From Chthonomonadaceae bacterium (GTDB lineage Bacteria > Armatimonadota > Chthonomonadetes > Chthonomonadales > Chthonomonadaceae), in NCBI GenBank assembly GCA_035650735.1, contig DASRGZ010000076.1, positions 1 to 64,000 of the forward strand: a stretch of DNA of 64,000 nucleotides, read 5' to 3'. The notes beneath the pieces are model-generated. The model ran no database searches. It had not been told where the DNA came from and saw nothing but the letters and a program-made list of their open reading frames with translations. How positions within the stretch are numbered: the first letter of the stretch is position 1; each line of letters begins with the position of its first letter. Below are positions 7,251-58,160 of the stretch, one piece after another. A program made the translations under genes and the position numbers.

Positions 7251-7520
7251 ACCTCACCCAGTGGCCCTCACCCCCGGCCCATTGCCAGGGTCGGCAGGGT
7301 TAGGGGCCCTGCCTCCGCCTTGCCACAGCCCTCCGCCTGGCGACCCCCGGCGCTGCGGGAGAGGGGAGAGGCTCCCACCCCCTTCCCCACTGCCAGGGTC
7401 GGCAAGGTTACGGCCCTTGCCTCCGCCTTGCGACACCTTGCGATCCCCAAGAACAGGGGAGGGGAGACGAGAAGCTGGGTCACCCCCTTCCCTCCCAGGG
7501 AAGGGGGCCGGGGGATTAGG
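7251..7520. repeat. Cluster of C-rich REP-like palindromes (family A) carrying two inserted 45-bp hairpin elements (7281-7343, 7389-7443)
   Basis: CCCTCACCCCCGGCCC...GGGAGAGGGG and CCCCTTCCC...GGGAAGGGG units; family A also near 4755, 22160-22515, 28335-28670, 31661, 34670, 37119-37390, 45408, 50393, 57990-58290. Confidence 0.85.
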
Positions 7521-8830: not shown

Positions 8831-8947
8831 CGCTGGAAACCCCCTTCTCCGCTCTCCTTACATAAACAAAAGTTAGACGCCAACCTCTGATCTCCTCCTG
8901 TTTTCTCCTTCTGGCAGGGTCCTTCCGTTTGCCCTGTACTCGCCGCC

Positions 8948-9267
8948 GGGCACGGAAAGTACCCGGCTATGGGGCCTAACGGCCAGGCGTCCTGGCGGAC
9001 GCCCAGCAAAGCCAGGAGTTTCCGTCCGAAGGACGGTCGGCGGCGCAGCCGCCCTCTAGACGGGTATTTTCCATGCCCGGCTAGGACCGGGGTTTTCAAC
9101 CCCCGTCTGTGTGGCCTTCGGCCAAGCGACTGCAAGGGACGGCGCTACGACTGCTAGGGTCGGAACTGGGCACGCTCGACTGCCAGGGACGCCGCTCAAC
9201 GGCTCGCGGCTCTGCCTGGCGATCTCCGCCTGGCGATACTCGCGCCTCTGCCTTGCGACTGGCGGAC
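8948..9267. repeat. Composite REP/REPIN-like repeat (family B) with a triple-nested hairpin element at 9129-9258
   Basis: Colinear with 48889-49082; units CGGGTA..AAAGTACCCGG, GGCC..CGGCCAAGCGTCCTGGCGGACG, CGTCCGAAGGACG. Confidence 0.85.
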
Positions 9268-9509
9268 ACCAAAAACGCAAAAACATCGAGAACGGAAGGA
9301 CCTGTTCTTGTAGACGATTAGATTTGCAAAAGTCATTAGCAGCCCGAAAAGAAAACGGAAGGATTCTGAGAGGAGCGCCGTGCCGCTCGGTGAAGGGTTT
9401 TTGCGCGGAACTGTCGAAAGGATGCTTGCTGTTCGCTACGCGACGCGCTGGGAAGGTTCCGGGAACTCCTATCCGGGCTCTGTCTTCTAATTTGTGAAGG
9501 GAAGAACGT

Positions 9510-13292: not shown

Positions 13293-13415
13293 GCCCGGCC
13301 CTGATGAACCTTGACTTTTTCATCGGGTAATCCCCGGTTCGTAGGGCCATACACCTAAGGACCTAGCCGCCCTGCGATTACCGGATTTAGTTGTCAAGGT
13401 TCATCAGGGCCGGGC
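13293..13415. repeat. 123-bp element with perfect 23-bp terminal inverted repeats (MITE-like)
   Basis: GCCCGGCCCTGATGAACCTTGAC at 13293-13315 and its exact reverse complement at 13393-13415. Confidence 0.75.
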
Positions 13416-18744: not shown

Positions 18745-18807
18745 CTTGGCACGGCTCCTCAATGGCGCCTCTGGCTCCTTGACTGCCCATTAGTAGAGGT
18801 GGAATTT

Positions 18808-18868
18808 CCCGCCCACGCAGGTGGGCGGCGGGCTGTAAGCCCCACAGCGGCAGGGTTTAGCCTGCCGC
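18808..18868. repeat. Family C REP-like repeat (inverted copy 51855-51916; partial 48028-48048)
   Basis: CCGCCCAC..GTGGGCGG + GCCCCACAGCGGCAGGGTTTAGCCTGCCGC. Confidence 0.75.
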
Positions 18869-18918
18869 CAACACGACGGCGGCCTTATCGGAGGCCCACG
18901 TAACTGGGCGCTTCCCTC

Positions 18919-22178: not shown

Positions 22179-22327
22179 ACTGCTCGGGTCGGGGCTACAA
22201 TGGACTGCAAGGGTCGGGCCTGCCATGGTTCGCCCCACTGCCAGGGTCGGCAAGGTTACGGCCCTTGCCTCCGCCTTGCGACACCTTGCGACACGGCTCT
22301 GCCTTGCCACACCCCTCCGCCTGGCGA
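22179..22327 (+). mobile_element. Nested 45-bp hairpin elements (3 left ends, 4 right ends) inside a family A REP
   Basis: Left ends at 22179, 22204, 22237; flanks CCCTCACCCCCTGTCCCC and CCCCCAATTCTAGG. Confidence 0.7.
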
Positions 22328-28405: not shown

Positions 28406-28639
28406 AGTTCAGGGGCGGACAGTCGCTGTTAGCGACGGAATAGAATTCCTTCGCTCTGTGGCGTCCCGCCCAGTGACTGCAAGGGTCGAGCCTCAACGGT
28501 TCGGCCTTCCGCCTTGCGACACCTACGCGGACACGTACCGACTGAGAGACTGGTAGGTCTCCCCGTAGGGGGAGACTGGGCCGGAGGCCACCCAGCGAAG
28601 GCTTTAGCCCGTCGAACAATAAGTGTCCGCCCTTGAACC
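28406..28639. mobile_element. ~234-bp non-autonomous MITE inserted in a REP hairpin loop
   Basis: TIRs AGTTCAGGGGCGGACAGT / GGTTCAAGGGCGGACACT; direct repeat TTGAGA at 28400-28405 and 28640-28645. Confidence 0.75.
28476..28519 (+). mobile_element. Single unit of the 45-bp hairpin element inside the MITE
   Basis: ACTGCAAGGGTC-GAGCC-TCAACGGTTC-GGCCT-TCCG-CCTTGCGA. Confidence 0.7.
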
Positions 28640-37136: not shown

Positions 37137-37190
37137 ACTGCCAGGGTCGGCGCTCAACGGTTCGCGCCTCCGCCTCGCGACACCTTGCGA
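37137..37190 (+). mobile_element. 45-bp hairpin element (1 left end, 2 right ends) inside a family A REP
   Basis: Flanks CCTAACCCCCCGGCCCCC / CCCTACGAGGGAAGGG match the intact REP at 28336-28372 minus TT. Confidence 0.72.
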
Positions 37191-37325: not shown

Positions 37326-37370
37326 TCGCTAGGCGGAGGCCCGAACCATTGCAGGCCCGACCCTAGCAGT
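37326..37370 (-). mobile_element. 45-bp hairpin element, reverse orientation, inside a family A REP
   Basis: Minus strand ACTGCTAGGGTC-GGGCC-TGCAATGGTTC-GGGCC-TCCG-CCTAGCGA. Confidence 0.72.
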
Positions 37371-45350: not shown

Positions 45351-45510
45351 GTTCGGGCGGCTAAAGCCGCAGCAACAAAGGCACCAAGTCCGCCTTCGCG
45401 GACTCCTTTCTCCCCTCTCCTTCCCAAGGAGAGGGGCCGGGGGTGAGGTCTGTAGTCGCCGTAGGGCGACTTCATGCCTTTGTTGCCGCGAATTGATTCG
45501 CCCGCTACCG
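45351..45510. repeat. Inverted pair of family D REP-like units around a family A REP
   Basis: CGGGCGGCTAAAGCCGCAGCAACAAAGGCA..AGTCCGCCTTCGCGGACT versus AGTCGCCGTAGGGCGACT..TGCCTTTGTTGCCGCG..CGCCCG. Confidence 0.65.
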
Positions 45511-51830: not shown

Positions 51831-51986
51831 ACACCGGGATTTGCCGTCCTTTTAGCGGCAGGCTCAACCCTGCCGCTGTGGGGCGCTTTGCGCCCGCCGC
51901 CCACCGGCGTGGGCGGAAAAAGCGCCGCCATGAAAGGGCAGTCAAGGAGCCGGAGGCGCCGCTTCCAGTCTCGAAGTCGCACTCTT

Positions 51987-58029: not shown

Positions 58030-58160
58030 ACTGCCAGGGGCGGGGCTGCAATGGACTGCCAGGATCGGCCCTGCAACGGTTCGGGCCACTGCCAGGGTCG
58101 GCAAGGGTACGGCCCTTGCCTCCGCCTGGCCACACCTTGCGACACCCCGCCGCCTTGCGA
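58030..58160 (+). mobile_element. Triple-nested 45-bp hairpin elements inside a family A REP
   Basis: Left ends at 58030, 58055, 58088 closed by three right ends; flanks CCCTCACCCCCAGCCCCT / TCCACGCTGCGGGAGAGGG. Confidence 0.75.

Follow-up and report, generated by a model that had tools for sequence, protein, structure and literature searches.

Short hairpin units nested within palindromic repeats and within their own copies in a Chthonomonadaceae genome

Introduction

How did three hairpins of one design come to lie inside one another at positions 9129-9258 of a Chthonomonadaceae contig, and does their order tell when each of them arrived? The window, that is, the whole 64,000-nt stretch of DNA analysed here, belongs to contig C76 of the genome G000, an assembly of 6.5 Mb in 224 contigs that is 97.6% complete. 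An original prediction, made from the letters of the window, held that left ends and right ends are nested like brackets at this locus, that each insertion costs its host 2 nt, and that the nest arose by serial self-insertion and so records the order of events. Here we follow these proposals through the window, the rest of the genome and the relatives of the organism.

Results

The parse of the window agrees with the bracket order proposed for 9129-9258, where three left ends are closed in reverse order by three right ends. The nest consists of three different subtypes of a 44-45 nt hairpin, each replacing 2 nt of its host. It lies in a palindromic repeat, an empty copy of which is found 130 nt upstream and has TC where the filled copy has the nest:

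8943..9002, + strand: empty copy of the host repeat, with TC at 8990-8991 as the unfilled site
9087..9128, + strand: left part of the host palindromic repeat, of the family that flanks a Y1 transposase gene (G000 C166:80026-80526)
9129..9258, + strand: outer unit with the inner stem GGCGC/GCGCC, interrupted by the middle unit following TACG
9150..9236, + strand: middle unit, GGAAC type, the 3' arm of its inner stem split by the inner unit
9179..9222, + strand: innermost unit, intact, 44 nt, GCCGC/GCGGC type, among the commonest types
9259..9269, + strand: right part of the host repeat

The GCAAGG/CCTTGC arms of the outer unit pair, along with its inner stem GGCGC/GCGCC, and the innermost unit pairs through GCCAGG/CCTGGC and GCCGC/GCGGC. 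In the middle unit, the GGAAC arm faces a right arm that the insert divides into G and TC, and the variable outer pair is T-G. Folded as a whole, the 130-nt nest is only modestly better than shuffled sequences (z = -2.0).

Further copies were parsed elsewhere in the window:

7281..7343, + strand: collapsed loop-type nest, one left and two right ends
7389..7443, + strand: collapsed bulge-type nest, one left and two right ends
22179..22327, + strand: nest in a host of the CCCCTCTCCC type, three left ends against four right ends
28476..28519, + strand: single 44-nt unit in another host repeat
37137..37190, + strand: collapsed bulge-type nest, one left and two right ends
37326..37370, - strand: single unit in a host hairpin on the other strand
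58030..58160, + strand: balanced three-level nest, loop site then bulge site

The same nesting had been claimed for two of these loci. It is present at 58030-58160, a clean three-level nest, and the parse is not clean at 22179-22327, where three left ends face four right ends, so that one left end has been lost; no left end answers the right end that stops at 22309, and the inner arms of the second unit (GGGCC/GCCCC) pair incompletely. The copies at 7389 and 37137 do have the single left end and two right ends ascribed to them, and 7281 adds a third such case. Longer inverted-repeat families also lie between genes of the window at 13293-13415, 18764-18880, 45354-45504 and 51843-51960, and the G000 genome contains at least five abundant palindromic repeat families.

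The whole of G000 was then parsed iteratively for brackets, with a two-letter placeholder for each insert and host lengths of 43-47 nt admitted. A loose grammar returned 866 units, against 57 when the genome sequence was reversed, so the parse is not a product of chance. Stricter filters left 772 units, 272 of which are hosts, in nests of depth up to 5 (500 units at level 0, then 208, 57, 6 and 1). Sites 18, 10, 14 and 22 nt from the right end of the host account for 267 of 276 placements. The inner unit always has the orientation of its host, with no opposite-strand nest in the whole-genome parse. Inner units had been placed in the loop or the bulge of their hosts, and both kinds of host recur throughout the genome. 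The genome-scale parse that the original prediction had suggested thus finds pairing to be non-random, and depth and position to be variable.

Not one of 269 host/inner pairs shares the same left part and, since host and inner units always differ, tandem duplication is excluded. A nested arm order fitted better than a swapped one in 12 of 13 host-in-host pairs; a host-plus-inner pairing test (80:0) is partly circular and was given no weight. Together with the stepwise depths, these results uphold the serial insertion of whole units. The nests fall into 52 topologies, with 194 distinct sequences among 209, and such variety of topology, depth and position excludes descent from a single fixed composite.

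The unit, 44-45 nt long, opens with ACT and closes with GA. Between them lie an outer arm of 6 bp, variable at one position, an inner stem of 5 bp set off from it by an internal loop (3 nt/4 nt), and a loop of 10-11 nt. It has fixed ends, a two-helix fold and no coding capacity, and 36 of 503 outermost placements fall inside crude ORF calls, the others outside ORFs. Units or nests within long crude ORFs, possibly as in-frame insertions, are seen at G000 C56:60649, C176:8987 and C94:16023. All four inner-stem positions tested are paired in 428 of 484 simple units (shuffle mean 93). In an alignment of 24 units, picked for diversity and too closely related for a formal covariation test, 98% of inner-helix cells pair and four of the five pairs have changed on both sides; units of other organisms add further compensatory paired stems. 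Because the inner stem is kept by compensatory changes, the folded form is what selection keeps. The outer variable pair is weak evidence for bracket matching, since no more than 234 of 484 simple units have it paired, against a null of 136. Wobble counts for the folding strand were 41 A-C and 36 G-T. At the foot of the bottom-strand hairpin, the tetranucleotide is TGTC in 300 of 772 units, CCTC in 46 and CGTC in 5; the remainder, among them GATC, TGTG, GGTC and AGTC, varies with the host, and top-strand feet are GACT/CACT.

The loss of 2 nt per insertion was confirmed: hosts filled with the placeholder are 44-45 nt long, like simple units, even though 43-47 nt was admitted, and comparison of filled with empty copies shows that the unit replaces 2 nt, mostly pyrimidines, ahead of C. 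The replaced pair is TT in the loop (186 of 201 matched simple units), TC in the bulge (194 of 207), and TC, CT, TT, CC or GC in other host repeats; a filled/empty contrast is available for AAGCG-TC-CT, CCC-CT-CC, CCCCC-TT-CC, TTGCT-GC-GG and GCCG-TC-CG. This 2-nt rule is common to unrelated host repeats. Insertion sites are few and fixed, mostly S-YY-C on the inserted strand, and neither strand has a target of 4-5 nt that stays constant 5' of them. The unit junctions of filled versus empty hosts show no target duplication.

As a complete description of the junction, the predicted 2-nt loss fell short, because the next one or two host bases are usually altered too. Counted as copies rather than as independent events, CG has become CA after the insert in 104 of 106 loop hosts (simple units keep CG in 195 of 201), CA or TA follows the insert in 88 of 91 bulge hosts, and CC has become TC in 40 of 41 stem hosts. 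The change is CT to CC in one host family and TG to CA in another host, and the next bases are unaltered in CT and GG hosts and in most CC hosts of one family. The length change is therefore 2 nt and the altered stretch up to 4 nt. Methylation-driven decay of CGWCG was rejected as the origin of the G-to-A scar: CGACG and GCGACG stand at 0.88 and 0.98 of expectation, and some insertions in the related genome G001 retain CG.

The claim that a nest records the local order of events found no support, in the form given, when its copies were compared. The architecture of the 9129 nest occurs 14 times in the genome. Its lineage comprises 33 copies, nearly all at one host site and with depths 1, 2 and 3 all present: nine copies of the single outer unit (with CTTG instead of 9150-9238, a joint also present in four sequencing runs in Logan), two-level forms carrying several different inner units, three-level forms and collapsed forms. 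Another lineage is marked by a natural barcode, a unique insert of ~36 nt with a 37-38 nt duplication, within the inner unit of a two-level nest. This nest has 15 contig occurrences, which come down to at least 10 loci once halves split between contigs are joined. Its contexts number at least four: it lies directly in two host families, in the bulge of another unit and, by way of another unit, in a third host family. Because it recurs at many loci in different hosts, composites must move or be converted whole. Two of its occurrences lack the first left end, and a lineage found both with and without that end bears out the proposed collapse by recombination.

Of 106 loop hosts, 48 have arms that match across the insert (null mean 29; none of 5000 shuffles reached 48), as do 21 of 29 hosts at the 22-nt site and 37 of 59 hosts of balanced nests (null 12). 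In bulge hosts, both inner arms lie on one side of the insert and are paired in only 46 of 91 cases, which indicates that arms were shuffled after nesting; ahead of a bulge insert, the right arm converges on GGGCC whatever the left arm. Stray arms occur in 117 of 194 nests lying away from contig ends, and subtype nestings are reciprocal (both A-in-B and B-in-A). A test of whether inner units lie nearer the consensus than outer ones gave no significant difference (p = 0.39; paired 28 vs 23), in a comparison whose range is limited by parser tolerance. With composites copied and arms matching in about half of the hosts, a nest records the history of its lineage, not of its locus. Independent insertions may perhaps number only some tens, all else being copying. 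The genes on either side of the 9129 nest match different contigs in the related genomes G001 and G010, so these offer no orthologous site for comparison.

Inserts of another kind were also observed in G000. Single unique inserts of 32-40 nt are flanked by direct target duplications, exact and at least 27 nt long in 81 cases; duplication lengths peak at 29-31 nt with a second group at 35-40 nt, and some are true small arrays. Examples lie at C27:3631, C28:62651, C38:32120, C59:66548, C120:27850 and C182:26057. These sizes agree with those of the C93 array next to cas1, whose repeat measures 30 nt and whose spacers measure 35-37 nt. They look like off-target CRISPR spacer integration, and several hit hairpin nests. 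On the minus strand of C55, ~11693 from its end, the right end of a unit is interrupted by ~100 nt unrelated to it and bounded by short CTAG-like repeats; this may be another MITE.

Nearly all outermost units (471 of 477) adjoin a frequent repeat. The host repeat family of the 9129 nest also flanks a Y1 gene on C166, and CCCCTCTCCC-type repeats, likewise hosts of the unit, flank DUF559 genes in the relatives G001, G010 and G019. With both Y1-flanking and DUF559-flanking repeats among its hosts, the unit parasitises repeats of at least two systems, and it may hitch-hike with them.

Among 185,579 species genomes, the exact unit pattern gave seven matches, all in one Chthonomonadaceae MAG, and a looser pattern matched only G000 among 401 genomes of the phylum. 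With a covariance model, 4 of 42 family genomes proved to contain the unit (G000, G001 with nine matches, G010 with seven and G019 with two), against none of the 26 genomes that represent the class's other two families. One G019 match (C128, L233) carries the barcode nest of G000, and another G019 contig (C54, L259) is 100% identical to C146 of G000; this match is thus probably mis-binned and was not counted as independent. The second is a diverged unit. Of 129 metagenome loci with the unit, 103 belong to this organism, 4 are similar to it and 22 are from other organisms. The burst of units is found only in G000. No bias between leading and lagging strands was seen for the units (257:244), by a skew proxy that is weak and shows genes to be unbiased too.

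The genes of G000 that might supply an enzyme are two Y1 genes, a TnpB element, Cas1 and a Vsr/C5-methyltransferase pair, the first three being placed as follows:

G000 C166:80026-80526: IS200-like Y1 gene, flanked by its own inverted repeat family
G000 C166:12518-12951: second IS200-like Y1 gene, with its own inverted repeat family, apparently split over two frames
G000 C52:6500-7712: TnpB gene with a broken Y1 remnant, IS200/IS605-type (L063, L015)

No unit lies at the TnpB element on C52, and 42 loci around enzyme genes in G000 and its relatives, which are incomplete genomes, gave no match to the unit. Inspection by eye of 19 genes with units on both sides and of 138 repeat-flanked ORFs revealed no unit-specific enzyme; apart from the two Y1 genes, the genes between units or repeats serve housekeeping functions or encode two small proteins, which we take to be of the four-helix-bundle and GxxExxY types. 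Low-GC small genes between frequent repeats, taken to encode a four-helix-bundle protein and a GxxExxY protein, are located at G000 C123:4139-4498 and C161:11421-11801. G000 has no match to the reverse transcriptase PF00078 or the IS110 transposase PF02371, and no stand-alone DUF559 or GIY-YIG gene, these domains occurring only in frames of 1561 and 618 aa. Y1 genes are widespread (31 of 41 related genomes) and the unit is rare, so their co-occurrence is uninformative.

In the relatives, palindromic repeats of the CCCCTCTCCC type stand in inverted orientation on both sides of stand-alone DUF559 genes, an arrangement like that of a REPtron (L264, L265, L268, L270, L273, L274 and L275 in G001 and G010; L263 and L269 in G019), for which a literature search on DUF559 with palindromic repeats found no paper. 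In G000, genes for a Vsr endonuclease, a C5 methyltransferase and a probable restriction enzyme stand together at C186:30292-33073 (L062); this genome is strongly depleted of GGWCC and of many 6-base palindromes.

Discussion

The explanation that we prefer begins with a gene-less hairpin of 44-45 nt that occupies other palindromic repeats and its own copies, replacing two bases, and that would be mobilised in its folded, single-stranded form by a domesticated HUH/Y1 (REP-type) transposase provided in trans. New insertions would be rare and would fall at the few fixed sites in hairpins; as the unit itself carries four such sites, nests would grow layer by layer. Most nests would then arise by copying, in which the outer ends move the composite or the host repeat carries it along; alternatively, shared arms may permit gene conversion that drags flanking bases with it. 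Slippage or recombination between directly repeated left or right ends would collapse and shuffle the products. This course of insertion, copying and collapse is very probably correct. A putative HUH/Y1 enzyme working in trans is the leading, if somewhat doubtful, candidate for the mover, and the complete account, from mobile hairpin and HUH/Y1 in trans through layering and copying to collapse, comes close to an even balance of belief while falling a little short of it.

Strand-specific, hairpin-dependent and duplication-free insertion beside resident REPs fits HUH/Y1 chemistry best. The BIME model, as set out in PMC3333891, has integration next to resident REPs and allows trimming of the 3' end, and PMC8266576 describes guide-directed cleavage at dinucleotides by TnpA-REP. 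Pointing toward HUH are the TGTC at the 5' foot of the bottom-strand hairpin and the Y1 gene flanked by the 9129 host repeat; against it, the foot tetranucleotide follows the host, and the unit also occupies DUF559-flanking repeats in relatives. We know of no IS200/IS605 transposition that deletes or rewrites target bases. The rewriting of flanks and the absence of a fixed target fit a nick-and-copy process equally well.

One such process would be homing-like repair. A nuclease specific for structures or mismatches, DUF559/Vsr-like or of a comparable type, would nick repeat hairpins at set positions, and the repair machinery of the cell would then use a filled copy as template, so that the unit and the bases beside it are converted together. 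The rewritten bases beside the insert, the convergence of right arms on GGGCC before bulge inserts, the DUF559 genes of G001, G010 and G019 flanked by the main host repeat and the Vsr gene adjoining a C5 methyltransferase in G000 all agree with it. The G000 assembly lacks a stand-alone DUF559 or GIY-YIG gene, however, the ends of the unit are precise, and hosts without homology to the unit require a homology-free step for the first insertions; we regard this reading as unlikely. Rather less likely still is a recombinase or reverse transcriptase of an unassembled element (IS110/IS1111-type, serine/tyrosine recombinase or group II intron-type), with the scar left by a mismatched crossover or by priming. 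Such elements may indeed be missing from an assembly of 224 contigs with almost no multicopy transposase genes, the sub-terminal inverted arms of the unit are short and asymmetric, and REPs are reported as IS targets in PMC3333891. Against this stand the absence of PF02371 and PF00078 matches from a 97.6% complete genome and targets that have only ~4 loose bases in common. Conservative recombination, moreover, should lose no target bases, which counts against a missing recombinase.

Slippage and unequal recombination among hairpin repeats might also have acted alone, with no insertion enzyme, and the stray arms and the mismatched arms in about half of the hosts attest that recombination is very active. 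Yet inner and host left parts are never alike, and whole units with the same ends lie in at least 12 unrelated host sites and in other species; unit-precise insertion into non-homologous hosts largely refutes an enzyme-free origin, which we consider very improbable. Least probable of all, to the point of being nearly negligible, is that nests are chimeras of short-read assembly. Many contigs end in nests, and Logan contigs break there, so that the latter neither support nor contradict them. On the other side, all 38 of 38 nest comparisons with metagenome contigs spanning both flanks are letter-identical, in assemblies that may share reads with G000; L170, a contig of another organism, has its own nests at other sites; and the junction rules are too regular for chimeras.

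The preferred HUH/Y1 account invites comparison with REP, BIME and REPIN repeats and their RAYTs, as these are presented in PMC3116915, PMC3333891, PMC8266576 and PMC6006769. The unit resembles them as a short, imperfect, intergenic and non-coding hairpin with a bulged stem and hundreds of copies, without target duplication and clustered with other palindromes. Unlike the REPs of those accounts, it has no GTAG/GGAG or GT(A/G)G foot at the 5' base of the hairpin, and it replaces and rewrites target bases. No tnpA-REP gene flanked by the unit was found, as a REPtron would have, the two Y1 genes of G000 being flanked by other repeats. Where REPINs are described as inverted doublets whose higher-order forms are tandem or co-localised, the unit inserts singly, and its higher-order forms are same-strand nests. 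How REP-like repeats spread is presented as still open in PMC8266576.

The bottom strand starts with TGTC or CCTC in part of the units, which brings to mind the CGTC/TGTC/CCTC tag of another group, the CGTC-tagged repeats (dRS3 and RPE-4/6; Di Nocera et al. 2013, PMC3733652). The unit is like these in its 3-nt unpaired tail and want of an associated transposase, and some REP families treated in that paper sit within other palindromes, as the unit does. The CGTC-tagged repeats differ in having, as described there, an 8-9 bp stem and a 4-5 nt loop, whereas the unit folds into two helices, one of 6 and one of 5 bp, with a loop of 10-11 nt besides an internal one; the unit stem starts with G-C, its tail is AGT rather than CCA, it forms no head-to-head dimers, and the first two letters of its tag follow the host. 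Armatimonadota are absent from the phyla listed in PMC3733652. A very small repeat placed precisely at a fixed position within another repeat has its nearest precedent in the SDRs of Nostocaceae (SDR5 in HIP1; Elhai et al. 2008, cited in PMC4390886, PMC2884548 and PMC3116915), which belong to another phylum and are ~20 nt long against 45 nt for the unit. Classical MITEs, as characterised in PMC3184786, share its non-autonomy, inverted ends and filled and empty sites; they differ from a unit that has no target duplication, only 6-bp sub-terminal arms, a much shorter length and a fixed orientation. Three other identities were rejected: a non-autonomous IS200/IS605 derivative, since flanks vary on both strands and the C52 TnpB element has no unit; a CRISPR repeat, the arrays on C93, C109 and C224 having other repeats; and a known structured RNA, with no Rfam match in the window. 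Literature searches returned no description of the element or of self-nesting with target replacement. The unit might form a class of its own among minimal mobile DNAs, as a two-helix hairpin of 45 nt that would target itself and the hairpins of unrelated Y1- and DUF559-associated repeats, insert by an undescribed form of substitution, removing two bases and overwriting the next two, and carry nests and captured 36-nt foreign inserts between its ends; we think this doubtful.

In conclusion, nested repeats of this kind provide no clean clock, as composites are copied and shuffled. Filled and empty sites by the hundreds, nested intermediates and natural barcodes nonetheless yield exact junction rules. 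These rules (the loss of 2 nt, the rewriting of adjacent bases, a single orientation and a few sites) bind any enzyme that may be proposed, which makes the question of how the unit moves testable in vitro.
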